Below are positions 11,241-28,634 of a stretch of DNA of 64,000 bases, piece by piece. Every line of letters starts with the position of its first letter. The stretch's first letter is position 1. The DNA comes from a virus. Lineage: Duplodnaviria > Caudoviricetes. Location: the IMG/VR virus record IMGVR_UViG_3300027754_000035, one strand, 5' to 3'. The notes beneath the pieces are model-generated. The model had not been told where the DNA came from, searched no databases, and saw only the letters and a program-made list of their open reading frames with translations. The translations under genes were made by a program, and so were the position numbers.

Positions 11241-11294
11241 AAAAAACTTAAAAAAGATTTGATGTTTTTCAATTTCCAAGATAGTTATTCGTAT

Positions 11295-11372
11295 ATGACA
11301 CCAGTTTGTGTACAACATATTAAGCGTGAATGGTATAATACAACCTTTGATAAAAGAAAGGTTGGCGGCTGA
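11295..11372 (+). CDS. leader peptide 1 (MTPVCVQHIKREWYNTTFDKRKVGG)
   Basis: 25-codon ORF whose 3' end overlaps the antiterminator segment; codons match array-1 tRNAs. Confidence 0.8.
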   Translation: MTPVCVQHIKREWYNTTFDKRKVGG

Positions 11373-11440
11373 TATTTTGTATACATAACTAATAAAAAAA
11401 CAATATCAACCGTCACCCAGAAATGAGTGACGGTTTTTTG
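11341..11440 (+). promoter_or_regulatory. transcription attenuator upstream of tRNA array 1
   Basis: 1:2 hairpin caaccttt/aaaggttg (11341-64); 2:3 antiterminator 11360-75 with 11403-18 (14/16 pairs); 3:4 terminator aaccgtcac/gtgacggtt plus U-tract. Confidence 0.8.
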
Positions 11441-11469
11441 TTTGAAAATGTTGGTAAAAAAATGATGTT

Positions 11470-11580: not shown

Positions 11581-11602
11581 TTAGAACAATTTAAGAAACG
11601 AA

Positions 11603-11735
11603 GGCTTGAAACTCCATCTGTTGAGCCTCCGCCAGTGAGTTGGGAAACCAACAATAAGGTAAAGTCTGGAAAAATCAATTGATTGGTCAACGGGTGTTAT
11701 GCTGCAATACAGAACCCGTATGGCGATGAAATTGC
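11603..11735 (+). ncRNA. putative structured ncRNA, copy 1 (homolog at 24875-24975)
   Basis: Shares an identical 26-mer (gggtgttatgctgcaatacagaaccc) and a conserved-loop hairpin with copy 2. Confidence 0.65.
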
Positions 11736-11770
11736 GATTAAGATCGTTATTTTCTTTATATGTATATGAT

Positions 11771-12379
11771 ATGGGTATACTACATGAATTAGGAACAAAA
11801 TATAATACGGATAAAGCTTGGTGTCACAGATACATGGATTTTTACGAACAATTTTTTGCGCCGATTAAAAATGATGTTAAAAAAATTATTGAAATCGGTG
11901 TACAATGTGGCGGAAGCATACAAACATGGTTAGAATATTTTCCAAATGCAACCGTGTATGGAATTGATTGTGCGCCTCGACCAGAAGTTTTGCAACATGA
12001 ACGTTTTGTTTTCATTACAAAAGACGCTTTGAAAGAAGACGTTTATGGTATGTTTTCTGATGGAGACATTGATATCGTAATTGACGATGGTAGTCATTAC
12101 ATGTCGCAGCAACAAGATGCAATAAAATATTATTGGTCAAAAATAAAACCCAATGGTTATTTTGTAATGGAAGATTTACACACATCATTTGCGGGTGAAT
12201 CACACAATCCACAATATATTGATAGATTACCAACAACATACGATTTTCTCGCAAACAATCTTGATTCGCAAGATGTCGAATTGAACGCAATTCGAAAACA
12301 ATTTTATGAACGACACCACTACAACCGTGATGGTGGATTGCATATCAATGCAAGTCTTACGTGTGTGATCAAAAAGTAA
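11771..12379 (+). CDS. class I SAM-dependent methyltransferase
   Basis: LGTKYNTDK.W.H.Y..FY, IIEIGVQCGGS..TW..YFPNA.VYGID, IVIDDGSH, YFVMEDL. Confidence 0.88.
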   Translation: MGILHELGTKYNTDKAWCHRYMDFYEQFFAPIKNDVKKIIEIGVQCGGSIQTWLEYFPNATVYGIDCAPRPEVLQHERFVFITKDALKEDVYGMFSDGDIDIVIDDGSHYMSQQQDAIKYYWSKIKPNGYFVMEDLHTSFAGESHNPQYIDRLPTTYDFLANNLDSQDVELNAIRKQFYERHHYNRDGGLHINASLTCVIKK

Positions 12380-12390
12380 TATATAATTTT

Positions 12391-12466
12391 GCCACCTTAG
12401 CTCAGTTGGTAGAGCATCAGTTTTGTAAACTGAGGGTCGTCGGTTCAACCCCGACAGGTGGCTCCA
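12391..12466 (+). tRNA. tRNA-Thr(UGU)
   Basis: Full cloverleaf, loop TT-TGT-AA, CCA end. Confidence 0.95.
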
Positions 12467-12474
12467 GTTTTAAT

Positions 12475-12550
12475 GTTGGATATCCTCTATGTAGTAAGAG
12501 CATTGCCTGTGAAGCAATCAAAGGGAGTGCAAATCTCCTTATCCACCCCA
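12475..12550 (+). tRNA. tRNA-His(GUG)
   Basis: ATTGC CT-GTG-AA GCAAT; C73; T-loop TGCAAAT. Confidence 0.85.
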
Positions 12551-12558
12551 AATTTAAT

Positions 12559-12637
12559 GGCCTTATCGTCTACGAATGAAATAGGATTCTGGATTCTCAA
12601 TCCGGAGAACTCGGTTCAACTCCGAGTGAGGCTACCA
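12559..12637 (+). tRNA. tRNA-Glu(CUC)
   Basis: CTGGA TT-CTC-AA TCCGG; GGCCTTA/TGAGGCT acceptor; CCA. Confidence 0.85.
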
Positions 12638-12646
12638 ATTTACAAT

Positions 12647-12721
12647 GGTCTATTCGAACATCAGCTAGTTCGCTAGTTTTTCAAACTGGAAAAGTGGGGG
12701 CAGCACCCACATAGACTACCA
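12647..12721 (+). tRNA. tRNA-Glu(UUC)
   Basis: CTAGT TT-TTC-AA ACTGG; atypical T-loop GGCAGCA; CCA. Confidence 0.85.
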
Positions 12722-12726
12722 TTTAC

Positions 12727-12802
12727 GGTCCGGTGGTGAAACTGAATATCACACAACATTACGAACGTTGAATTTAGGGTTTAACTCCCTACTGGACCAC
12801 CA
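12727..12802 (+). tRNA. tRNA-Arg(ACG)
   Basis: CAACA TT-ACG-AA CGTTG; GGTCCGG/CTGGACC; CCA. Confidence 0.85.
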
Positions 12803-12901
12803 ATTTAGTTGTCAGATGCAAAATTCTGAGTTCCGTTATATTCAACTACCGAGAACAGGCATCAGGAGCGATCATGCTCTGCCAACTAATTAATTTATGA
12901 T

Positions 12902-12977
12902 ATCCGCCCATGTTCCAAGGCAGGCGACAGAGACTCCAAATCTCAGTGGGAAAGTTCGATTCTTTCGGCGGATGCCA
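12902..12977 (+). tRNA. tRNA-Trp(CCA)
   Basis: GAGA CT-CCA-AA TCTC; ATCCGCC/GGCGGAT; G73 CCA. Confidence 0.85.
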
Positions 12978-12988
12978 ATTTAACAAAT

Positions 12989-13064
12989 GCACATGTAACT
13001 CAGTTGGTAGAGTGCGAGTTTTCCAAACTTGCTGTCGTGAGTTCGAATCTCACCATGTGCTCCA
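12989..13064 (+). tRNA. tRNA-Gly(UCC)
   Basis: Canonical cloverleaf, TT-TCC-AA, U73 CCA. Confidence 0.95.
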
Positions 13065-13190
13065 ATTTCCACTAATATAAATGAGATAAATAAAAAACGG
13101 CATGGTCTCATGTAATGGGTTCGATTCCCAACCCGCTGATGAAAATCAGAAGTGTAAGCCTGTATTATGTGAAGTGGAATCAATTTTTAT

Positions 13191-13267
13191 GGGATTGTAA
13201 GAGAATGGCTTCATCGCTTATCCTGTCACGATAAGAAAGTCGGGTTCAAATCCCACCAGTCCCGCCA
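13191..13267 (+). tRNA. tRNA-Asp(GUC)
   Basis: TTATC CT-GTC-AC GATAA; G73 CCA. Confidence 0.85.
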
Positions 13268-13558
13268 TTTTTCAAATACATTAGGTGAAGGCAACGAACG
13301 TAGTTTAATTGGTAAAACAACCGCACGAATAAGCGGTGATCATTCAGTTCGAGTCTGAATCAACAGTTGAAGTAGTAAGTAATGTATTGACACTGATAGA
13401 CATTGAATGTTATAATCTGACGAGATTATGATTAGTAAGTGGAACAACGTGAAATCCAGTAAACACTTTTGAAAGAGAGTCGGTTGAAGTCCGAACGGAA
13501 GTGCAACGCACCCTAAGTAGTGGTAAGAGAATCCACGCTTTCAAATCAATTTTTTAAT

Positions 13559-13632
13559 TCCCGAGTAGTGTCAAAGTAGCACGGAACGCTGTTAACGTTC
13601 TTGTGAGGGTGCGAGTCCTTCCTTGGGAGCCA
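13559..13632 (+). tRNA. tRNA-Asn(GUU)
   Basis: GAACG CT-GTT-AA CGTTC; G73 CCA. Confidence 0.9.
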
Positions 13633-13640
13633 ATTTCAAT

Positions 13641-13715
13641 TCCTATCTAGCACAACGGTAGTGCGTCAAACTGTTAATTTGATGGTTCTTGGTTCAAATC
13701 CAAGGGTAGGAGCCA
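13641..13715 (+). tRNA. tRNA-Asn(GUU)
   Basis: TCAAA CT-GTT-AA TTTGA; G73 CCA. Confidence 0.93.
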
Positions 13716-13724
13716 ATTTTTAAT

Positions 13725-13813
13725 GGTAGTGTATCCAAACTGGTGAAGGAGATCGACTGTAAATCGATTGCCATGTGCTAAACTTGTAGGTTCAAATCCT
13801 ATCGCTACCACCA
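13725..13813 (+). tRNA. tRNA-Tyr(GUA)
   Basis: ATCGA CT-GTA-AA TCGAT; long variable arm; CCA. Confidence 0.9.
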
Positions 13814-13894
13814 AATTTCGTGTAATAACGAACAGATAGGTTAAACCGCTAAACTTCTAGAAAGCTAAAGTTTTATCTATCTGACAATTTTAAT

Positions 13895-13979
13895 GGGAGT
13901 ATCGCATAGCGGCAATTGCAAGACGCTGTAAACGTCTCGGTTCACGCCTTCGTAGGTTCGAGTCCTACTGCTCCCACCA
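13895..13979 (+). tRNA. tRNA-Tyr(GUA)
   Basis: AGACG CT-GTA-AA CGTCT; long variable arm; CCA. Confidence 0.93.
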
Positions 13980-13985
13980 TTTTAA

Positions 13986-14093
13986 TCTGTGTGTAGTTCA
14001 GTAGTAGATCAAAGCACTGCTATGATGGTAAATGACACCGCAAAAGGGCAGAAGAAGCTTAGGCCGTTGGTGCAAATCCAACCACACAGATCA
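13986..14093 (+). ncRNA. tRNA-like RNA with expanded anticodon arm
   Basis: TCTGTGTG/CACACAGA acceptor, D-arm and T-arm GTTGG-TGCAAAT-CCAAC are intact; the central arm is about 45 nt. Confidence 0.6.
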
Positions 14094-14205
14094 ATTTATA
14101 CATTTGGAAATAATATGCAACAAAATATATTGAAAAGGTTGCATGGTGTAAGGTAACATACTCAATCCTATTGTTTGAGAGATTATTAACCACATAATGT
14201 AGTTT

Positions 14206-14277
14206 TTGACAGATGACGTGGTAAAGACCCCGATTCATCATCGGGGTCGGAAAGGTTCAACTCCTTTAATCTGTCAA
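14206..14277 (+). ncRNA. minimal tRNA-like RNA (reduced D-arm)
   Basis: TTGACAGAT/ATCTGTCAA closing stem, GACCCCGA/TCGGGGTC arm, T-arm AAAGG-TTCAACT-CCTTT; no CCA. Confidence 0.5.
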
Positions 14278-14289
14278 TTTATTTTTAAT

Positions 14290-14365
14290 CCGGATTAAGC
14301 TAACTTAGTAGAAGCGTCTGTTTGAAGAGCAGAATGAGTCAGAGCGTAACTGACAATCCGGGCCA
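14290..14365 (+). tRNA. tRNA-Phe(GAA), atypical
   Basis: CCGGATT/AATCCGG acceptor, TCTGT TT-GAA-GA GCAGA, T-loop AGCGTAA, G73 CCA. Confidence 0.65.
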
Positions 14366-14470
14366 ATTTTAGTAGTAATCGCACTTGGTATCGCCCAAGT
14401 TTAACATGGATGAATCGGAGTATATCTATGGATCTGTGGTGTCACGGAGCGGTGAATGATTTAGAAACAT

Positions 14471-14872
14471 ATGATTATAAATACAGTTCCAACGGTACCA
14501 AAACTTATTGCCGCAATAGCAAATTGTTTGCATCCAAAATTGTTGAAACCCGAGTATCGGCAAACAAATGCAAATAATCCTATGTATGGACATTGTTATG
14601 TTGCTACCGAGGCGTTGTATTGTTTGATGAATAAATTTTCATTGACTGATACGTTCAAGCCATTTCAAGCAAAAGATGAAAACAACGTGAGTCATTGGTG
14701 GTTGCAAAGTCAAGACGGAGTGATCATTGACATAACAGCATCGCAATATACGAGTGTTGGTAAAACGCCGCCATACAGCAATGGCAAGTCAAGATCTTTC
14801 ATGTATCCGTCACCATCAAAAAGAAGCAGAAACGTGATGGAAGCGGTTCTGAAAAAAGTTGTTGACCTATGA
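14471..14872 (+). CDS. hypothetical protein with possible Cys-His-Asp (papain/transglutaminase-like) triad
   Basis: GHCYVATEA...SHWWL...IIDITASQY. Confidence 0.75.
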   Translation: MIINTVPTVPKLIAAIANCLHPKLLKPEYRQTNANNPMYGHCYVATEALYCLMNKFSLTDTFKPFQAKDENNVSHWWLQSQDGVIIDITASQYTSVGKTPPYSNGKSRSFMYPSPSKRSRNVMEAVLKKVVDL

Positions 14873-14928
14873 CGAATGTGTGGTAAGATGTTTATAGTTC
14901 GTTGACAACAGCAGATACAATTTTTAAT

Positions 14929-15006
14929 GGATGTGTAACTCAACTGGATTAGAGTATTCGGTTCTTACCCGAAAGGTTGTGGGTTCAAATCCCACCACAT
15001 CCACCA
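14929..15006 (+). tRNA. tRNA-Lys(CUU)
   Basis: TTCGG TT-CTT-AC CCGAA; CCA. Confidence 0.92.
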
Positions 15007-15013
15007 ATTTAAT

Positions 15014-15089
15014 GGGTAACTGACCCCATAAGTGACTGCCGACCGGTACATTCGGTAAAACACAGTGACAGCTTGGAAAGACAGCACCA
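15014..15089 (+). ncRNA. CCA-terminated non-cloverleaf RNA
   Basis: Has tRNA-style spacers and ends GCACCA, but lacks a canonical T/D arm. Confidence 0.45.
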
Positions 15090-15096
15090 ATTTAAT

Positions 15097-15171
15097 GGGA
15101 TTCAAGCTTTAATGGTGAAGCAACTGGCTTTTAACCAGTGGAACACGGATCGTTACCGTGGAGTCCTACCA
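15097..15171 (+). tRNA. tRNA-Lys(UUU)
   Basis: ACTGG CT-TTT-AA CCAGT; T-loop ATCGTTA; CCA. Confidence 0.85.
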
Positions 15172-15362
15172 ATTTAGTTATTTGACAAAGCTAGTCAAGA
15201 AGGTTTGTATTGGGTCGCCCCTGATACTTTTTCCTTGAAGATAGATACGAATGTAGTTTAAGAGAAGAACGCCCGCCGTAGAAAGCGGGAGATTTAAGGT
15301 GCGACTCCTTAACGAATGTAGAACACATTTTATCGTGAAATCCTTTCAAAAATCCAATTTAT

Positions 15363-15441
15363 GGGGGTATGGTGTAACTGGTTAACATCGCACACTGTCA
15401 CTGTGCAGACTTGCTCGGTTCAAATCCGGCTACCCTCGCCA
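15363..15441 (+). tRNA. tRNA-Asp(GUC)
   Basis: GCACA CT-GTC-AC TGTGC; G73 CCA. Confidence 0.88.
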
Positions 15442-15448
15442 TTTCAAT

Positions 15449-15522
15449 TGTCTCTTAGCTTAAGAGTAAAGCCCACAACTGATAATTGTGTGACGACGGA
15501 GCGTTACCGTCAGAGACAACCA
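15449..15522 (+). tRNA. tRNA-Ile(GAU)
   Basis: CACAA CT-GAT-AA TTGTG; T-loop AGCGTTA; CCA. Confidence 0.85.
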
Positions 15523-15718
15523 ATTTTTTGAGATAGCTGATAAGGTCTGAAAAACATGATAAGTAAGACACAAACTGAATAGTAACAAAGATCATCTTTA
15601 GATTTACAAAGGCTTAGTAAATCGATATTATGTGAGTGAAATTTGAGGAAAGCAACTAAGCAACAAGTTTCTGATTACATAGGATCTGTGTATGAAGGAT
15701 TTTTCAAAATATTTTAAT

Positions 15719-15795
15719 GCATCCGTAGCTCAAATGGATAGAGCTTCCGGTTTCTACCCGGACGGCTGTAGGTTCAATTCCTACCGGATGCACCA
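15719..15795 (+). tRNA. tRNA-Arg(UCU)
   Basis: TCCGG TT-TCT-AC CCGGA; CCA. Confidence 0.95.
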
Positions 15796-15799
15796 TTTT

Positions 15800-15997
15800 T
15801 GATAGAGTAGTGTAATGAAAGCACGTTACAGAGGTTAGCTGTAGCTGGGATGATCCAAATTTATTTGGGTAAATGTAAACGACGACTACGGAATAACCTA
15901 TATTTTAGATGTATTAATTCTCATGATTGTCATGTCGATAAACTCCAGTAAGGTAATAAAACTTGAGGTTTGGGTTTGATTCCCAACTCTATCACTA
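15800..15997 (+). ncRNA. about 200-nt tRNA-mimic with a large internal insertion
   Basis: TGATAGAG/CTCTATCA closing stem, D-arm GTGT-AATGAAA-GCAC at the 5' end, T-arm TTGGG-TTTGATT-CCCAA at the 3' end. Confidence 0.6.
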
Positions 15998-16052
15998 ATT
16001 TATAATTGTATTCTATATATGATTGATATTTATTTGTAACAACCATAACAAT

Positions 16053-16409
16053 ATGAAGAAAAAACTATTTGAGAATATCGGCAACAACACATTCAAACTC
16101 AGAAGCAATCTGAATGAGAGCGTTCTTAAGACAAGAATGACACTCACCAATCCTAAAACTGGTGCTGAGTCGGATGTTGATCTTACGGTAACATACACCG
16201 CTACTAAATCATCCCGTGGGGAACGTGAACGTGGTACAGGTCTTCAGTTGTCGCCTGATGATGAAGGGTCAATTGAAATTGAAAGCGTAAAAGATTCAAC
16301 TGGTCAAGACGTTGTTCTGTCAGACTCTGAATTAGAACAACTAAAGGCCGACATCGACGAGCGTTTGTCAGATGCTCACAATGATTACGATGAACCAGAT
16401 AATCTGTGA
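16053..16409 (+). CDS. hypothetical protein
   Basis: ORF preceded by a TATTTAT motif; acidic C-terminus. Confidence 0.75.
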   Translation: MKKKLFENIGNNTFKLRSNLNESVLKTRMTLTNPKTGAESDVDLTVTYTATKSSRGERERGTGLQLSPDDEGSIEIESVKDSTGQDVVLSDSELEQLKADIDERLSDAHNDYDEPDNL

Positions 16410-16538
16410 AGTAATTTCACATTTTTGACGATATGTATAAGAGTGTTTGGTGTTAACCGCACTTTTTATCGTTTCGTGTGTGTGAGTAGTTGATGAAGGA
16501 GAACGAATTGACAAATCAACTAGCACCAAACACATTTT

Positions 16539-16615
16539 GCTCACATAGCTAAATTGGAGACAGCACTTCGGTCCTAACGAAGCGATTGAAGGTTCAAATC
16601 CCTCTGTGAGCACCA
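16539..16615 (+). tRNA. tRNA-Arg(CCU)
   Basis: CTTCG GT-CCT-AA CGAAG; CCA. Confidence 0.88.
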
Positions 16616-16672
16616 CTTTTGTATTGACGTTTTATAGGAACGTAGCAAGATGACTACAGTTCTTTTATTAAT

Positions 16673-16749
16673 GGGCGTGTAACTCAACTGGATAGAGTGC
16701 GAGTCTTCGAAACTCGAAGTTGCAGGTTCAAATCCTGCCATGCCCACCA
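16673..16749 (+). tRNA. tRNA-Arg(UCG)
   Basis: CGAGT CT-TCG-AA ACTCG; CCA. Confidence 0.95.
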
Positions 16750-16907
16750 CTTTTTGAACACAAGGCGAATATTTGTCGCTAAGACGACTGGAAAACGTAT
16801 CCAGCTAACTGCCGAGTGAAGTATCCACGGTGCGACTCTGAATCGCAACTGGCTCTGAGAATTGATACTATGTTGGTATAAATAATCCAACTGTGTTCAA
16901 AATAATT

Positions 16908-16984
16908 GCCTTATTAGTATAAGTAGTTTATTATGCAAGTTCGGTAAACTTGAGAATCCAGTGCAAGTCTGGAATAAGGCTCCA
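16908..16984 (+). tRNA. tRNA-Thr(GGU)
   Basis: CAAGT TC-GGT-AA ACTTG; GCCTTAT/ATAAGGC; T-loop TGCAAGT; CCA. Confidence 0.8.
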
Positions 16985-17005
16985 CTTTTACATATTTATT
17001 ACTAT

Positions 17006-17476
17006 ATGATACTATTAAAAGATTTGTTGAATGAAGCACAACCCGAGTTGACTGTATACAGAGGTGTTAATCCCACATACGGTGATATAGGGTTGGGTAT
17101 AAACAGCACCAAGATTGGTGACAAGTTAGTGGCTACACTGGGACCAAATCATACAAACAATATAGAAGTTGCAAAAAAATTTGGTAAACAAATAACAACT
17201 ACTAAGTTAAAAGGGCCTGGATTAGAATTGTCGCATTACAATGATATAATTAAGTTGTATAAACAGTATGAAAACATGTTGCCCGTTGGTCTTGCTGGTA
17301 AAATTAAAAATAGTAATGGACAAGCTCAATTAGATTTAATACAATTAGCTGGTAAAGATCTGCGCAATATATTGAGTAAGAGATATGGATACATCAAAAG
17401 TCCTCTTGCAATTAGTGATGCTAGTTATTTGAGTGAAAAAGGTCTGACTGGTGATCTGTATATTCCATTGAAATAA
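17006..17476 (+). CDS. putative ADP-ribosyltransferase-fold protein
   Basis: TVYRGV and HTNNIEVAKKF motifs; MILLKDLLNE N-terminus; late motif upstream. Confidence 0.6.
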   Translation: MILLKDLLNEAQPELTVYRGVNPTYGDIGLGINSTKIGDKLVATLGPNHTNNIEVAKKFGKQITTTKLKGPGLELSHYNDIIKLYKQYENMLPVGLAGKIKNSNGQAQLDLIQLAGKDLRNILSKRYGYIKSPLAISDASYLSEKGLTGDLYIPLK

Positions 17477-17497
17477 TTTTTGTTGAGATTCAATTTT

Positions 17498-17572
17498 GCC
17501 TCCTAAACATAGATAGCGATGTGTTAGTTTCGTAAACTAAAGAGGACAGTGCAAGTCTGTCATGAGGCTCCA
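17498..17572 (+). tRNA. tRNA-Thr(CGU)
   Basis: TTAGT TT-CGT-AA ACTAA; CCA. Confidence 0.85.
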
Positions 17573-17580
17573 ATTTTAAT

Positions 17581-17655
17581 TGACACTTAGCGTAATAGAA
17601 ACGCAATCGGCTCTGACCCGAAAGATTGTAGGTGCAAGTCCTACAGTGTCAGCCA
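17581..17655 (+). tRNA. tRNA-Gln(CUG)
   Basis: ATCGG CT-CTG-AC CCGA; TGACACT/AGTGTCA; G73 CCA. Confidence 0.88.
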
Positions 17656-17662
17656 ATTTTAT

Positions 17663-17746
17663 GCATCGTTAGCCAAATGGGAAGGTTGCGGTCTGCAAAA
17701 CCGTAGTGGCAACACAGAGTTAGTTCGATTCTAACACGATGCTCCA
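17663..17746 (+). tRNA. tRNA-Cys(GCA) with long variable arm
   Basis: GCGGT CT-GCA-AA ACCGT; GTG-GCAA-CAC extra arm; U73 CCA. Confidence 0.88.
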
Positions 17747-17860: not shown

Positions 17861-18268
17861 ATGATTATTGATTGGGCAATTTACTATCAGCAAAACAAAC
17901 ATCTTCCATATAATACTATTATGGAGGGCTACAAAAAGCATTTGCGTGAGTATCAAGAACGGCTGACTCATATAAATCAAATAAACCAAGCTCCAGGATG
18001 TGGACCAGCAGGCCCAGCAGATCTACCAAATCCTACACCTAGTGTAACTCCTAGTGTAACACCTAGCTTGACTGCAACTCCTAGTGTAACACCTAGCTTG
18101 ACTGCAACACCAAGTGTAACACCTAGCTTGACTGCAACACCAAGTGTAACACCAACTAGAACTGCAACACCAAGTGTAACACCAACTAGAACTGCAACAC
18201 CAAGTGTAACTGCAACACCTAGCTTGACTGCAACACCAAGTGTAACTCCAAGCACATCTACTCTGTAA
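17861..18268 (+). CDS. small protein with a Thr/Pro/Ser mucin-like repeat tail
   Basis: TPSVTPSLTA / TPSVTPTRTA repeats over the C-terminal half. Confidence 0.8.
   Translation: MIIDWAIYYQQNKHLPYNTIMEGYKKHLREYQERLTHINQINQAPGCGPAGPADLPNPTPSVTPSVTPSLTATPSVTPSLTATPSVTPSLTATPSVTPTRTATPSVTPTRTATPSVTATPSLTATPSVTPSTSTL
18032..18255 (+). repeat. coding tandem repeat (TPSV/TPSL/TA units)
   Basis: Repeated acacctagcttgactgcaac and acaccaagtgtaac units. Confidence 0.9.
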
Positions 18269-18291
18269 CACATAGAAGTTGACAATTTACA

Positions 18292-23688: not shown

Positions 23689-23817
23689 ATGTTAAATTTT
23701 TTGCGCAATCTAATCAAGAATCTTTTTGGAAATAGTAGCGGGTGCTGCAAACTTCCAAAAAACGGAGAACTGGCAAATGTACCTCAAAAGGGTTATTTTA
23801 ACCAAAAGTCATATTGA
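23689..23817 (+). CDS. small protein (42 aa), amphipathic N-terminus
   Basis: MLNFLRNLIKNLFGNSSGCCKLPK...; below the ORF-track cutoff. Confidence 0.45.
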   Translation: MLNFLRNLIKNLFGNSSGCCKLPKNGELANVPQKGYFNQKSY

Positions 23818-23869
23818 CAATATTGGCAGTTCACAAACAACAAACAAACAGAAAAGAGAAAAATAAATT

Positions 23870-24571
23870 ATGAAGAAGTTACTAACATTCGTATTGTCAC
23901 TATTGACGGCATTGACCGTTGTTACCGCAGCAGACATCGCAAGCATTTCGCTTGACACGGGTTACAACAACCACTACGTCGTTGATGGTGTCTCCTACGC
24001 AAAGCAAACCCCATACGCTGGTATTGGTGCTGTAAAGTCCCTCAAGTATGCCGATGTTTATGTGGGTGGACTGTATGTGTCTGATGGCACCAAGGATCAG
24101 TCTCATTGGCTTGTGGGAGCAGGCAAGACCGTTTCCGTGAACAAGGACTTTGGTCTGCGTTTGGACGGCACTGCGATTCGTCACCAAACCGCTGCAAGTG
24201 GTTTGCCAAACTCAACTGAACTGAGTCCCAAGTTGGCATTGCAAAATGATTGGGTCACTCCATACATTCGTGGTTCATTCAATCTGGATCTACACCAAAA
24301 TGGTTACTTTGTTGGTGCAGAGCGTGTGCAGAAGTTGCCTTTGGGCTTTACTCTGACTCCCGCTGTTGAATGGGGTCGTGTCACGGATTATGACGCCGTT
24401 CATGTCAAGGGTACGTTGGCTCGTCCATTCACTACAGGATTTGGTACAGTTACTCCATTTGCCGAGGTGGGTTGGTTCGACAACAGCCTCAAGAATGCAA
24501 AGTCTGTGTATGCAAATAATGTGTTCGACAACACTGTTGTGTACAACGTTGGTTTGCGTGTATCGTTCTAA
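23870..24571 (+). CDS. outer-membrane beta-barrel protein (TorF/TIGR02001-like putative porin)
   Basis: Signal peptide MKKLLTFVLSLLTALTVVTAA; alternating beta-strand pattern; C-terminal VYNVGLRVSF ending in Phe. Confidence 0.8.
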   Translation: MKKLLTFVLSLLTALTVVTAADIASISLDTGYNNHYVVDGVSYAKQTPYAGIGAVKSLKYADVYVGGLYVSDGTKDQSHWLVGAGKTVSVNKDFGLRLDGTAIRHQTAASGLPNSTELSPKLALQNDWVTPYIRGSFNLDLHQNGYFVGAERVQKLPLGFTLTPAVEWGRVTDYDAVHVKGTLARPFTTGFGTVTPFAEVGWFDNSLKNAKSVYANNVFDNTVVYNVGLRVSF

Positions 24572-24594
24572 TCCAACATAGAATAAACAAAATT

Positions 24595-24626
24595 AAAAGC
24601 TGCTGGAGAAATCCAGCAGCTTTTTT
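24595..24626 (+). terminator. intrinsic terminator
   Basis: aaaagctgctgga/tccagcagctttt. Confidence 0.85.
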
Positions 24627-24676
24627 GTTGAAAAAAATTCATGTTTTTCAAATTTACGCAATATGTATTAGAGAAC

Positions 24677-24736
24677 ATGAAGTACAGTCTACAACCATCA
24701 TCGTTAGCAGTAGCGGGTCAACCTAGTTTGACCTGA
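24677..24736 (+). CDS. leader peptide 2 (MKYSLQPSSLAVAGQPSLT)
   Basis: 19-codon ORF directly before antiterminator/terminator; codons match array-2 tRNAs. Confidence 0.8.
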   Translation: MKYSLQPSSLAVAGQPSLT

Positions 24737-24807
24737 TACCGATGGTTTACTTTTGAATACAAACTCTCAAGCTAACCGTTGGTCTCAAAAAGACCAACGG
24801 TTTTTTG
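24693..24807 (+). promoter_or_regulatory. transcription attenuator upstream of tRNA array 2
   Basis: 1:2 aaccatc(24693-99)/gatggtt(24741-47); 2:3 accgatggtt(24738-47)/aaccgttggt(24774-83); 3:4 12-bp terminator aaccgttggtct/agaccaacggtt plus U-tract. Confidence 0.8.
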
Positions 24808-24834
24808 TTTGAAAAAGTATTTTCAAAAGGCCTG

Positions 24835-24862
24835 TTGACAAACGATGAAGGTGTGGTATATT
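24835..24862 (+). promoter_or_regulatory. sigma70-type promoter ahead of array 2
   Basis: TTGACA-16-TATATT with TG extension. Confidence 0.65.
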
Positions 24863-24874
24863 GATTACATGTTC

Positions 24875-24975
24875 GGGGTTGAAACTCTATCTGGTGTCCC
24901 CAACGAAGGTTAAAACACTTGATCGGTCACTGGGTGTTATGCTGCAATACAGAACCCAACTGGCGATAAATTTGG
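24875..24975 (+). ncRNA. putative structured ncRNA, copy 2 (homolog at 11603-11735)
   Basis: gggg/cccc stem around the same ttgaaactcYatctgKtg loop; identical 26-mer at 24932-24957. Confidence 0.65.
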
Positions 24976-24997
24976 TAATAGATAAATACAATTTAAT

Positions 24998-25073
24998 GGG
25001 CGGGTAGTTTAGCGGCTAAAATATCACATTTACACTGTGACTATCGGGGGTTCGAGTCCCTCCTCGCCTACCA
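24998..25073 (+). tRNA. tRNA-Val(UAC)
   Basis: TCACA TT-TAC-AC TGTGA; CCA. Confidence 0.93.
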
Positions 25074-25102
25074 TTTTTCGATGAATGCAAATTCATCATT
25101 CT

Positions 25103-25173
25103 CGGTCCAAAGTGTTACGGTAGCATACGTGCTTTGGGAGCATGGGGACAGAGTTCGATTCTCTGTGGGCCGA
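25103..25173 (+). tRNA. tRNA-Pro(UGG), CCA not encoded
   Basis: CGTGC TT-TGG-GA GCATG; CGGTCCA/TGGGCCG A. Confidence 0.8.
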
Positions 25174-25200
25174 GGGAATTTTTTTGATTAACAAATCAAT

Positions 25201-25274
25201 CGGTCATAAGTGTTGAAGTAGCATACGTGCTTTGGGAGCATGTGGAGCCGGAGCGTTACCGGCATGGCCGACCA
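25201..25274 (+). tRNA. tRNA-Pro(UGG)
   Basis: Same anticodon arm as the previous Pro; T-loop AGCGTTA; CCA. Confidence 0.85.
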
Positions 25275-25289
25275 TTTTACCAATATTGT

Positions 25290-25976
25290 ATGAGATTGAG
25301 AGACATAAAGAAAAATCTAGAAAGCAACGTAAAAGAACTTGAGTTGATAGTAGCCAAGTCCAAATCGATAACCGATCTAATGCGACATTTTAATTTTCCC
25401 GAAAATGGAAAACAAACCAAGTATTTTTGGGAGTTGATTAAGCGACACAACATTGATACAAATCATTTCTATGATAGTAAAGTGTTGACATCGTGTGGAC
25501 AATGTAGAAAGACGATTAAAGTTCGTCAAAAAATTATCAACAATTCACGATGCAAAAAAGCATTCTGCGGTTCGTCTTGTTCGGCAAAATACAACAACCA
25601 TCATAAAACAAAAGGAACTCGTCGTTCCAAATTGGAAGCATGGTTGGAGAAAGAGTTGAACAAAAAGTATCCTAGTTTAGTGATACATTACAATCGCAAA
25701 GATGCAATAGAAGCAGAACTGGATGTTTACATACATTCGTTGAAGTTGGCGTTTGAGTTGAATGGCATTTTCCATTACCAACCAATCTTTGGTGAAGACA
25801 AGTTAAAAGACGTTCAAAAAAACGATGTTGAAAAGATACAAACATGTGTGGACAATCAAATACAGTTGTGTATAATTGATACATCGTCGCAGAAGCATTT
25901 CAAAGAAAGCAATTCGGCAAAGTATTTGAATATGATGACGAAGATCATTGACAATAGAATTTTAATGGTGACGTAG
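25290..25976 (+). CDS. Vsr/DUF559-like PD-(D/E)xK putative homing endonuclease with zinc-binding module
   Basis: CGQC...FCGSSC; SKLE..L; ELDVYI..LKLAFELNGIFHY; D..K...C; inserted within a tRNA array. Confidence 0.85.
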   Translation: MRLRDIKKNLESNVKELELIVAKSKSITDLMRHFNFPENGKQTKYFWELIKRHNIDTNHFYDSKVLTSCGQCRKTIKVRQKIINNSRCKKAFCGSSCSAKYNNHHKTKGTRRSKLEAWLEKELNKKYPSLVIHYNRKDAIEAELDVYIHSLKLAFELNGIFHYQPIFGEDKLKDVQKNDVEKIQTCVDNQIQLCIIDTSSQKHFKESNSAKYLNMMTKIIDNRILMVT

Positions 25977-26044
25977 ACCAACTGGAAGGAGTCATGAGGT
26001 TGAGAACTTCAGTAGTGCAGGTTCGAATCCTGTCGTCGCTACCA
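25967..26044 (+). tRNA. tRNA-Leu(GAG), short variable loop
   Basis: TGAGG TT-GAG-AA CTTCA; A73 CCA. Confidence 0.85.
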
Positions 26045-26048
26045 AATT

Positions 26049-26132
26049 GGGCATGTGATGTAATAGAAGCCATGCGAGTCTTAGAAGCTCGTCCCGAAAG
26101 GGGTGTAGGTGCAAGTCCTACCATGCCCACCA
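26049..26132 (+). tRNA. tRNA-Leu(UAG)
   Basis: CGAGT CT-TAG-AA GCTCG; CCC-GAAA-GGG variable arm; CCA. Confidence 0.92.
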
Positions 26133-26142
26133 AATTTTTAAT

Positions 26143-26220
26143 GGCTATGTAGTCCAACTGGAAGGAGACGCTACTCTCAGAAAGTAGATAGTGTAGGTTC
26201 GAATCCTATCATAGCTACCA
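26143..26220 (+). tRNA. tRNA-Leu(CAG), short variable loop
   Basis: CTACT CT-CAG-AA AGTAG; CCA. Confidence 0.87.
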
Positions 26221-26228
26221 AATTTAAT

Positions 26229-26306
26229 GGCACCGTAGACCAACTGGAAGGAGTCGTCTCACTCAAAATGAGAATAGTGCAGGTTCGAATCCTGTCGGTG
26301 CTACCA
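26229..26306 (+). tRNA. tRNA-Leu(CAA), short variable loop
   Basis: TCTCA CT-CAA-AA TGAGA; CCA. Confidence 0.87.
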
Positions 26307-26335
26307 AATTTTAGTTGTTCTTTTGAAATTTTAGT

Positions 26336-26420
26336 GGGCATGTGGTGAAATTGGTATACACGTTTCGCTTAAGACGAAATCCCGAAAGGGGTGCTGGTTC
26401 GAGTCCGGCCATGCCTACCA
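26336..26420 (+). tRNA. tRNA-Leu(UAA)
   Basis: TTTCG CT-TAA-GA CGAAA; variable arm; CCA. Confidence 0.93.
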
Positions 26421-26587
26421 CTTTGCTAGTTTAGACGTATTCACGCCACAGTGAACGAGGGGCGAAAACCCTGCTTAGACGCATTCAAACAAATTTGAAT
26501 GGTAAGACGGCTCTAAACGGTAGAAATTTTATTTGTAGTTGACATCAGCAAGTATGCGTGTATACTATGTATAGTTCTTTTTAACAT

Positions 26588-26679
26588 GGAGAGGTGGCTG
26601 AGTCTGGCTTATGGCGACGGTCTTGAAAACCGTAGGGGCCTAAAAACCCCCGGGGGTTCGAATCCCTCTCTCTCCTCCA
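26588..26679 (+). tRNA. tRNA-Ser(UGA)
   Basis: ACGGT CT-TGA-AA ACCGT; long variable arm; CCA. Confidence 0.93.
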
Positions 26680-26961
26680 ATTTAATACAACTCCACTTGA
26701 CAATGGAACCGAAGACTGATAATATCGTCTCTTGAAGAAATCGGAGATTGTCTAAATTTTACCATCTATATATAGATGGTTGCAAAATGATTACCGATAC
26801 TAGTATTCCAGAATGAAGATCATTCCGGTTCGCTTATCAAAAAAAAGTAAGTACTTGATTGTACTGAAAGATAAGAAAGGTGGTACGACCGAAACAGTGC
26901 TATGGTAGCTCTACGAATCAATAGAGCAAGGTCAAAACAAATATCATTTTGTAACTTTAAC

Positions 26962-27054
26962 GGAAGTGACGTAGATAGTTAGTTTTCTACAGCAGTTTGC
27001 TAAACTGCCGTGCCCTAAAAAGCACTGAGGGGGCAGCACCCTTCGCTTCCGCCA
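26962..27054 (+). tRNA. tRNA-Ser(GCU)
   Basis: GCAGT TT-GCT-AA ACTGC; long variable arm; T-loop GGCAGCA; G73 CCA. Confidence 0.85.
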
Positions 27055-27060
27055 TTTTAC

Positions 27061-27136
27061 GGGCCAGTAGCTCATCTGGTAGAGCATCTGCTTTGCACGC
27101 AGAATGTGGCAGGTTCGAGTCCTGTCTGGTCCACCA
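27061..27136 (+). tRNA. tRNA-Ala(UGC)
   Basis: G3:U70; TCTGC TT-TGC-AC GCAGA; CCA. Confidence 0.95.
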
Positions 27137-27142
27137 ATTTAT

Positions 27143-27216
27143 GCGGGTATGATGTAGTGGTAGCCTTCGACCTTGCCAAGGTTGATGTGAGGGTTCGATT
27201 CCCTCTACCCGCTCCA
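27143..27216 (+). tRNA. tRNA-Gly(GCC)
   Basis: CGACC TT-GCC-AA GGTTG; U73 CCA. Confidence 0.93.
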
Positions 27217-27223
27217 ATTTAAT

Positions 27224-27297
27224 TGCCCGATAGTGTAATGGTAGCACAAGAGACTTTGACTCTCTTTGTATTGGTTCAAATCCAGTTCGGGCAACCA
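27224..27297 (+). tRNA. tRNA-Gln(UUG)
   Basis: AGAGA CT-TTG-AC TCTCT; CCA. Confidence 0.93.
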
Positions 27298-28246: not shown

Positions 28247-28634
28247 GGGCGTGTACTGGTTTCGATTTGAGTATACGTTCATTGTATGCACGCAGAAGAT
28301 GATGGTTGGCTTCTCTAAAGACCCATTAAAACATTAACCGCTGAGGAAAATGTAGTGAGCTACGACTTCTCTTACGAGAACGTCGGCGCAGTTGCAGCCT
28401 AATATTGGTTGCCCGTTTGTTCGGTGAGAGTTCGGTAATCGAAACAAATGTCATTTACGGACTAGAACTGAAAACAGTGATTTGTGGTTTCAGTTGACAT
28501 CTTACAAATCTTAAGAACAACATTTTTTGACAATATTAGATTGTTGTTCCTAACAAATTCAAAATTGTAAAAGCGTGTAGAGTGCGATGATACAATAGTC
28601 AAAGACGAGGGTTCAACTCCCTCCACGTCCACCA
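28247..28634 (+). ncRNA. ssrA: tmRNA
   Basis: GGGCGTG...CACGTCC-ACCA acceptor with G3:U70; 5' ctggtttcgat; 3' T-arm gagggttcaactccctc; tag reading frame 28340-28402 AEENVVSYDFSYENVGAVAA*. Confidence 0.92.

Follow-up and report, generated by a model that had tools for sequence, protein, structure and literature searches.

We consider it likely that positions 24677-24807 of the DNA analysed here encode a ribosome-mediated leader-peptide transcription attenuator, which gates read-through from an upstream promoter into an array of phage tRNA genes (array 2); neither translation of the leader nor regulation by it has been shown. The DNA (the window) is a stretch of 64,000 nt from a member of the Caudoviricetes, deposited as IMG/VR record IMGVR_UViG_3300027754_000035. 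The predictions of a ribosome-mediated attenuator that could be put to a clear anatomical or comparative test all hold true, and the attenuator postulated here in a sequence-only reading of the window is supported by the conservation of its short ORF, by the existence of two leader families which mirror two tRNA arrays, by a terminator that is always present, by an antiterminator that covaries with it, and by RNA contigs crossing the terminator. If the interpretation is correct, this would be the first leader-peptide attenuation of tRNA genes, and also the first sensor leader of a one-of-each type. So far, no published leader-peptide control of tRNA genes has been found in full-text searches of the literature; the one paper in which a tRNA operon is mentioned together with leader peptides proved irrelevant.

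The source of the window is an uncultured large or giant freshwater phage which carries two tRNA arrays and a tmRNA; the DNA and RNA runs that contain the stretch are lake or freshwater metagenomes, and a blastn search of a cultured-phage collection with positions 23800-25300 gave no match. Array 1 spans 12391-17746. Array 2 (24998-27297, plus strand) begins with tRNA-Val at 24998 and encodes, according to ARAGORN, Val-tac, Pro-tgg (twice), five Leu isoacceptors (Leu-gag, Leu-tag, Leu-cag, Leu-caa, and Leu-taa), Ser-tga, Ala-tgc, Gly-gcc, and Gln-ttg. A Ser-gct-like gene at 26962-27054 also belongs to array 2; it was called neither by ARAGORN, even with lowered thresholds, nor by Rfam. It folds into a cloverleaf with a long variable arm and agrees with the Ser-gct tRNA of a related locus (L001) in the anticodon arm and at the 3′ end; the D and T loops are atypical. 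The tmRNA gene is located 3′ of array 2 (28247-28634) and encodes the tag AEENVVSYDFSYENVGAVAA; relatives of the phage also have a tmRNA, with slightly altered tags. On the other side of the attenuator, a gene for a protein of 233 aa (23870-24571, the stop codon ending at 24571) is found, for which there is no Pfam or PHROG match. It is kept beside array 2 in relatives, and the C-terminus of its product (...GLRVSF) has a terminal Phe, which recalls outer-membrane beta-barrel proteins. This gene is closed by an intrinsic terminator of its own (T0, 24595-24627, plus strand), a 13-bp stem followed by a T run that was found in both the terminator scan and the hairpin scan, and which insulates the leader unit.

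The leader ORF (24677-24736, plus strand) starts with the ATG at 24677, ends with the TGA at 24734-24736, and comprises 19 sense codons (MKYSLQPSSLAVAGQPSLT); on re-reading, every codon in the list given earlier was correct. Codons 4-18 specify Ser, Leu, Gln, Pro, Ala, Val, and Gly only, exactly the seven amino acids of array 2, and all twelve codons from 4 to 15 can be read by array-2 tRNAs through Watson-Crick or standard wobble pairing if the Ser-gct-like gene is counted. The assertion that array 2 serves these codons holds with respect to amino acids and anticodons; the tRNA-Ser(GCU) cited there corresponds to the uncalled Ser-gct-like gene at 26962-27054. That the three Leu codons sample three Leu isoacceptors, as was also pointed out, is true for the leader of the window phage but is not a feature of the family. 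Each amino acid is represented once or a few times rather than in runs, from which a low sensitivity to any one tRNA is predicted. Among 539 ORFs of 15-31 codons starting with ATG on either strand of the window, two contain a run of at least 15 residues from the set of seven, the next best run being 12; the two records, which were not individually listed, are most likely the leader ORF and its in-frame upstream extension.

Such an extension is conceivable, as in-frame ATGs are present at 24641 and, for the leader preceding array 1, at 11262; both lie in a box (ATGTTTTTCAA) shared by the two leaders of the window, where they would read MFFKF and MFFNF, respectively. This box was considered as the start of an extended ORF (MFF...) and rejected: in relatives, the place is taken by a -35/-10 promoter, conservation does not extend to the upstream ATGs, and the region lies outside all RNA contigs. 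The two ATGs, which fall into the -35 region of relatives, are probably not start codons.

The leader promoter of the window (24638-24667, plus strand) consists of TTCATG and TATGTA spaced by 18 nt, and ends 9 nt before the ATG. Its hexamers are weak; it is homologous to the promoters of the relatives, which conform to TTGACN-17-(TGn)TATATA and often contain the TG before the -10 element. When the upstream flanks of 25 leaders are anchored at the ATG, the distance from the -10 element to the start codon is 7-11 nt, mostly 8. Because the leader promoter ends so close to the start codon, the leader mRNA probably has little or no 5′ untranslated sequence, the start of transcription itself being inferred. 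No Shine-Dalgarno motif is to be seen in front of the leader ORF; however, the protein genes of this phage do not have one either, being preceded by A/T-rich sequence instead (e.g., upstream of 8478, 9996, 33910, and 48720), and its absence is no argument against translation of the leader.

The intrinsic terminator of the attenuator (24774-24806, plus strand; -18.5 kcal/mol) consists of a 12-bp stem capped by a loop of 5 nt and followed by TTTTTT; in the stem, the 5′ arm (segment 3) occupies 24774-24785 and the 3′ arm (segment 4) 24791-24802. Segment 2, the 5′ strand of the antiterminator (ACCGATGGTT, 24738-24747, plus strand), starts 1 nt after the stop codon. Its proposed ability to pair in two ways was confirmed: it forms 7 bp with AACCATC (segment 1, 24693-24699, plus strand), which is part of the Gln-Pro-Ser codons of the leader and complementary to part of segment 2, or 10 pairs, two of them G-U, with the 5′ arm of the terminator. 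The latter duplex is worth -15.4 kcal/mol, and 3.5% of shuffled sequences do as well. A sister attenuator (attenuator 1, 11295-11448, plus strand) is situated ahead of array 1. Its leader (MTPVCVQHIKREWYNTTFDKRKVGG) samples Thr, His, Ile, Lys, Arg, Glu, Trp, Tyr, Asn, Phe, Asp, and Cys; its antiterminator strand is contained within the last leader codons, its terminator lies at 11408-11435, and the antiterminator duplex (-15.7 kcal/mol) is matched by none of 200 shuffles.

The way in which the attenuator would operate involves steps that are inferred, namely where transcription starts, that the ORF is translated, that ribosome and polymerase are coupled, and that the system responds to the supply of tRNA. 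RNA polymerase is presumed to start at the ATG (24677) or a few nucleotides upstream of it, which would result in a leaderless or near-leaderless mRNA. A ribosome would then translate the 19 codons, of which codons 4 to about 16 would each demand an amino acid and an anticodon supplied by array 2. If decoding is fast at every one of these codons, the ribosome should reach the UGA and cover segment 2 (24738-24747), allowing the hairpin at 24774-24802 to form and transcription to stop at the T run. If decoding is slow at any of them, for lack of its charged tRNA, the ribosome would lag behind and leave segment 2 free to pair with the 5′ arm of the terminator; the polymerase could then continue through a second promoter (P2) and the conserved 5′ element into the tRNA genes. 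The predicted outcome is that ungated transcription from P2 is supplemented on demand and in a self-limiting manner; attenuator 1 may act likewise for array 1.

The 1:2 pairing (7 bp) is formed in the full-length MFE fold of the window leader and is not consistently predicted in relatives. Full-length equilibrium folds in which the ribosome was represented by masks were uninformative, as the terminator was always favored. Instead, a crude simulation was used, in which the transcript was truncated before the 3′ arm and the ribosome footprint was masked. In the truncated folds of free RNA, the 5′ arm of the terminator is sequestered in some loci and not in others; a footprint at the last codons or at the stop codon frees the 5′ arm in most loci, while stalls early or in the middle of the leader leave it sequestered. 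In the leader of the window, the effect is modest in this simulation, sequestration of the 5′ arm decreasing only from 1.0 to 0.7 with a ribosome at the stop codon.

Related loci were reached by two routes. Via a neighboring gene, whose product is 53-62% identical, five loci were found (L001-L005), in all of which a short ORF, a terminator, and a promoter precede a Val-Pro-Leu-Ser array. Further, a 60-nt repeat that occurs downstream of both promoters in the window was employed as a handle, and its loop matched 66 stretches in IMG/VR; in every one of the 32 distinct stretches with tRNA genes downstream and enough sequence upstream, a short ORF is followed by an intrinsic terminator. Detailed analysis was confined to 25 distinct leaders, and at all 25 loci a promoter, a short ORF (17-28 codons), an antiterminator, and a terminator are present ahead of the array. 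The leaders are phylogenetically related, and the pooled counts given below are descriptive and overstate independence. The family is widespread in lake metagenomes, where dozens of distinct loci were found. Other handles were less productive: an exact-pattern search with the loop of the second hairpin of the 5′ element found no match in IMG/VR, the pattern of the terminator tail was present in only eight IMG/VR stretches, four of them unrelated or coding, and among 80 loci reached through a GP88-like neighbor gene, a tRNA array was adjacent in L022 only, L006 having just one tRNA, which makes this gene a poor guide to arrays. The sequence-only reading had also noted that both attenuators stop on UGA and end in the same tail; the tail (TTTTTTGTTTGAAAA) does follow each of the two attenuators and occurs nowhere else in the window, but neither trait is general in relatives, where the tail sequence varies and the stop codon is TGA at 11 loci, TAA at 8, and TAG at 6.

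The position of the antiterminator relative to the stop codon differs between the two types of leader, those preceding arrays similar to array 2 (type 2) and those preceding arrays similar to array 1 (type 1). The type-2 strand lies at +0 to +20 from the stop codon, beginning 0-7 nt downstream of the first base of that codon; in type 1, the strand consists of the last few codons (about six in most loci) up to the stop, and can also pair with a conserved CAATATC just upstream of the terminator stem. Pairing of the strand with the 5′ arm of its own terminator is possible in all 25 leaders, with a mean of -17.9 kcal/mol for cognate versus -11.1 kcal/mol for non-cognate combinations. Compared with shuffled sequences, Z-scores range from -0.85 to -6.6; in 24 of the 25 they are -2.1 or lower, beating at least 96% of the shuffles, and the one locus which is not better than its shuffles is L156 (Z -0.85). 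Compensatory changes between antiterminator and stem are visible by eye in the aligned leaders of L123, L133, and L097, and likewise between the window and L001. In the alignments, the paired fractions are 0.81 and 0.74, as compared to 0.26-0.55 when the partner column is slid.

The amino acid composition of the leaders reflects the arrays that follow. Type-2 leaders (MKYSLQPSSLAVAGQPSLT in the window; MILSSQPSLVSQAPSGY and MNLSVQSSVASGQPSPSLLPSAS in relatives) precede arrays for Val, Pro, Leu, Ser, Ala, Gly, and Gln, and type-1 leaders (MTPVCVQHIKREWYNTTFDKRKVGG in the window; MRVQYTHIKRWDTFTNCECVGGDIV) those for Thr, His, Arg, Glu, Trp, Asn, Tyr, Phe, Lys, Asp, Ile, and Cys. In the type-1 leaders taken together, amino acids from the set of array 1 (T, R, W, N, Y, F, K, I, H, E, D, C) account for 270 residues and those from the set of array 2 (V, P, L, S, A, G, Q) for 72; in the type-2 leaders, the corresponding numbers are 30 and 170. 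The tRNAs called downstream by ARAGORN split almost alike; tRNA-Val and, rarely, those for Leu, Gly, or Gln also follow type-1 leaders. The two families represent two separate solutions, which divide 19 amino acids as the arrays do. At the codon level, 64-69% of the sensing codons can be read by arrays of the matching type as opposed to 3-6% by arrays of the other type. Within synonymous codons, Val is encoded by GTA at 13 of its 15 occurrences in the type-2 leaders, located ahead of Val-tac, versus 13 of 37 in type-1 leaders (background, 0.26), Thr by ACA in 31 of 43 (background, 0.33), and Leu by CTA in 8 of 20 (background, 0.10); codon choice in the leaders leans towards codons read by the phage tRNAs.

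The pattern of substitutions, which includes synonymous changes at third positions, points to selection on the peptide and bears on whether the leader is a coding sequence at all. In the conserved block of type-1 leaders, four variable sites are at the first, none at the second, and five at the third codon position, and the replacements due to first-position changes are by other members of the set (His to Asn, Asp to Asn, Lys to Asn, and Arg to Cys). One could suppose that the region is merely a non-coding spacer, made up of a terminator for transcription from upstream and of promoters for the array, with the ORF being a chance frame; the ORF is very short and without a Shine-Dalgarno sequence, after all, and cassettes of terminator and promoter are common in phages. 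However, the frame is open at all 25 loci despite diverged nucleotides, the substitutions just described never fall on the second codon position, the composition is seen nowhere but at the leader locus among the 539 short ORFs of the window, and the upstream gene is already terminated by T0, so that we regard this possibility as very improbable.

The leaders are not uniformly constrained. Residues from the proper set make up 90% of the sensing positions versus 59% of the non-sensing positions in type 1, and 87% versus 74% in type 2; those outside the set are mainly found at codons 2-3 and among the last codons, where a stall could not sway the switch. Within a family, no fine tracking of the individual array was detected, the fraction of codons read by a leader's own array versus other arrays of the same type being 0.69 versus 0.66 (type 2) and 0.64 versus 0.65 (type 1). 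One relative has lost Lys, Asp, and Glu from both leader and array; counter-examples are a relative whose array 1 comprises just five tRNAs and whose leader still has Tyr, Asp, Lys, His, and Phe codons, and another with four Ser codons in the leader and no detectable tRNA-Ser. It is this lack of tracking, the retention in some phages of leader codons for tRNAs no longer encoded, and the use of single codons rather than runs which leave room for an attenuator of identical anatomy that reports general translation capacity (the availability of ribosomes, global shut-off, or overall starvation), the composition of its leader being historical or secondary. Such a device would not need two leaders dividing 19 amino acids in the way the two arrays do, nor a bias for cognate codons such as that for GTA, which is confined to the leaders in front of Val-tac; we therefore think it unlikely, though it cannot be dismissed as readily as the spacer.

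RNA evidence for transcription across the attenuator comes from lake metatranscriptomes of three studies, in which contigs begin at 24695, 24697, and 24703, all inside the ORF, and reach as far as 24861, 24960, and 25105. These contigs extend across the terminator and the interval before the start of P2, and only by read-through can that interval be transcribed. Positions 24572-24694 are covered in none of four RNA runs, while the whole stretch is contained in DNA runs; parts uncovered in RNA runs are, taken alone, no evidence of absence. The contigs fit a start of transcription near the ATG and some read-through, which has to be considered weak evidence as they are assembled, their strand and ends are unknown, and carry-over of DNA is not excluded.

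P2 (24835-24862, plus strand) is a near-consensus promoter of the sigma70 type, with TTGACA and TATATT separated by 16 nt (11 of 12 matches) and a TG before the -10 element. Promoters like it were recognized between terminator and array in those related loci that were read by eye, and in most of the other related loci one is present just ahead of the 5′ element. Due to the location of P2 downstream of the terminator, the attenuator gates only transcription begun at the leader promoter or further upstream; and since the array can be transcribed from P2 without passage through the attenuator, the latter can only add to transcription of the array and cannot fully control it, the gated share being unknown. 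With a promoter and a terminator of its own in front of an array that has P2, and with peptide families that are conserved, the leader could also be a stand-alone small gene for a micropeptide of 19 residues, the terminator simply ending its transcript and the pairing of segment 2 shaping or stabilizing the 3′ end of the mRNA. This we judge a slim possibility: the peptides are short, of low complexity, and variable in length and order with only the composition kept, which moreover is most tightly kept at precisely those codons where a stalled ribosome could influence the switch; the strand adjacent to the stop covaries with the 5′ arm of the terminator, a feature for which a mere 3′ end has no need; a tRNA array invariably follows the unit; and the terminator is crossed by RNA contigs.

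Between P2 and the first tRNA gene, a conserved RNA element of two hairpins is located (24871-24975, plus strand). It is about 100 nt long, is also present at 11598-11740 and in the loci L088-L156, contains four stem pairs with compensatory changes, and has invariant loops (TTGAAACTCYATCTGKTG and GTTATGC...CAGA). No Rfam family matches it. In one lineage, the element is situated between tRNA-Val and tRNA-Pro.

Ribosome-mediated attenuators which respond to more than one amino acid are known from enterobacteria, where the ilvGMEDA leader contains Ile, Leu, and Val codons and the thr leader Thr and Ile codons. Like these, the phage system has a short leader, translation of which is inferred here, with regulatory codons for more than one amino acid, slow decoding of which would lead to read-through, and an intrinsic terminator in competition with a mutually exclusive antiterminator, whose 5′ strand is at or near the stop codon. 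In contrast to them, the phage system controls tRNA genes and not biosynthetic enzymes, its regulatory codons match tRNAs instead of the end product of a pathway, its leader samples seven amino acids (twelve in the sister), mostly once or twice, rather than two or three in runs, its mRNA probably lacks a 5′ untranslated leader, the terminator is succeeded by a second promoter which is not gated, and the system is encoded by a phage. The attenuator of pheST, with its leader pheM, controls phenylalanyl-tRNA synthetase and resembles the phage system in that a component of the translation apparatus linked to a single tRNA species is attenuated; it differs in being bacterial and chromosomal, in acting on a protein gene, and in reporting one amino acid only. 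With the tRNA region of T4, which is a phage tRNA cluster transcribed from host-type promoters, the arrays described here share both the phage-borne cluster and the host-type promoters; to our knowledge, no leader-peptide attenuator is known for other phage tRNA clusters such as that of T4.

The leaders of the trp, his, leu, and phe operons (trpL, hisL, leuL, and pheL) constitute the class described in a modelling paper (PMC1183508). The alternative 2:3 and 3:4 pairings and the placement of segment 2 with respect to the stop codon are similar in the phage leader; trpL, hisL, leuL, and pheL, however, employ runs of a single codon and a conserved 1:2 protector hairpin, the counterpart of which is not consistently predicted for the phage leaders. 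T-box riboswitches also sense the status of tRNA and switch between terminator and antiterminator upstream of translation-related genes, but they bind uncharged tRNA directly and need no ORF, and neither a T-box nor a specifier structure is present in the phage leader; in Rfam searches, no T-box match was obtained for 24600-25000 even at E values up to 10. Nor did any of the Rfam leader families (Trp, His, Thr, Leu, Phe, and Bacteroid-trp, RF01692) match at its gathering score; the best sub-threshold match was Bacteroid-trp with 23.1 bits (cut-off 49, E = 3.1), and sub-threshold matches are at chance level.

What the attenuators are for is less certain than that they are attenuators. We lean towards the view that, by means of two panel-type leaders which together represent 19 amino acids, these phages gauge the usable tRNA pool of the cell in real time and raise transcription of an array only when its own panel of codons is decoded slowly, for example, early in infection, upon decay of host tRNA, or under attack by a host anticodon nuclease. 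Phage tRNA genes are mostly discussed in terms of their repertoire and not of the tuning of their expression. If the view is right, phages would regulate tRNA supply by demand, classical attenuation would extend from metabolic operons to the tRNA pool, and the leader would constitute a natural multi-amino-acid reporter of decoding speed. It also bears on why large phages carry near-complete sets of tRNA genes and on how they meet depletion or cleavage of host tRNA.

Some further properties of the window were observed in passing. In array 1, tRNA-His(gtg) and tRNA-Glu(ctc), at 12476-12550 and 12559-12637, are both missed by ARAGORN at default settings; the former is detected only when the threshold is lowered, and the position of the latter is flagged as tRNA by Rfam. 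Several more matches in array 1 (13987-14090, 15247-15320) were also obtained with Rfam only, which suggests that they are non-canonical tRNAs or tRNAs that carry introns. A gene for a methyltransferase (FtsJ-like/Methyltransf_24, 11785-12379) lies downstream of the conserved 5′ element and ahead of the first tRNA gene of array 1, and may encode an RNA-modifying enzyme that is co-transcribed with the tRNAs. Within array 2, at 25201-25976, the second copy of tRNA-Pro(tgg) is directly followed by an ORF which matches HNH/homing endonuclease PHROGs; it looks like a homing endonuclease has been inserted inside the array. The combination of genes without Shine-Dalgarno motifs and canonical sigma70-like promoters may help to narrow down the host of the phage. 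Lastly, a tandem repeat with units of 12/18/30 nt (18013-18276) is found within the ORF at 17861-18268, the product of which is a repeat protein rich in Thr, Pro, Ser, and Val.
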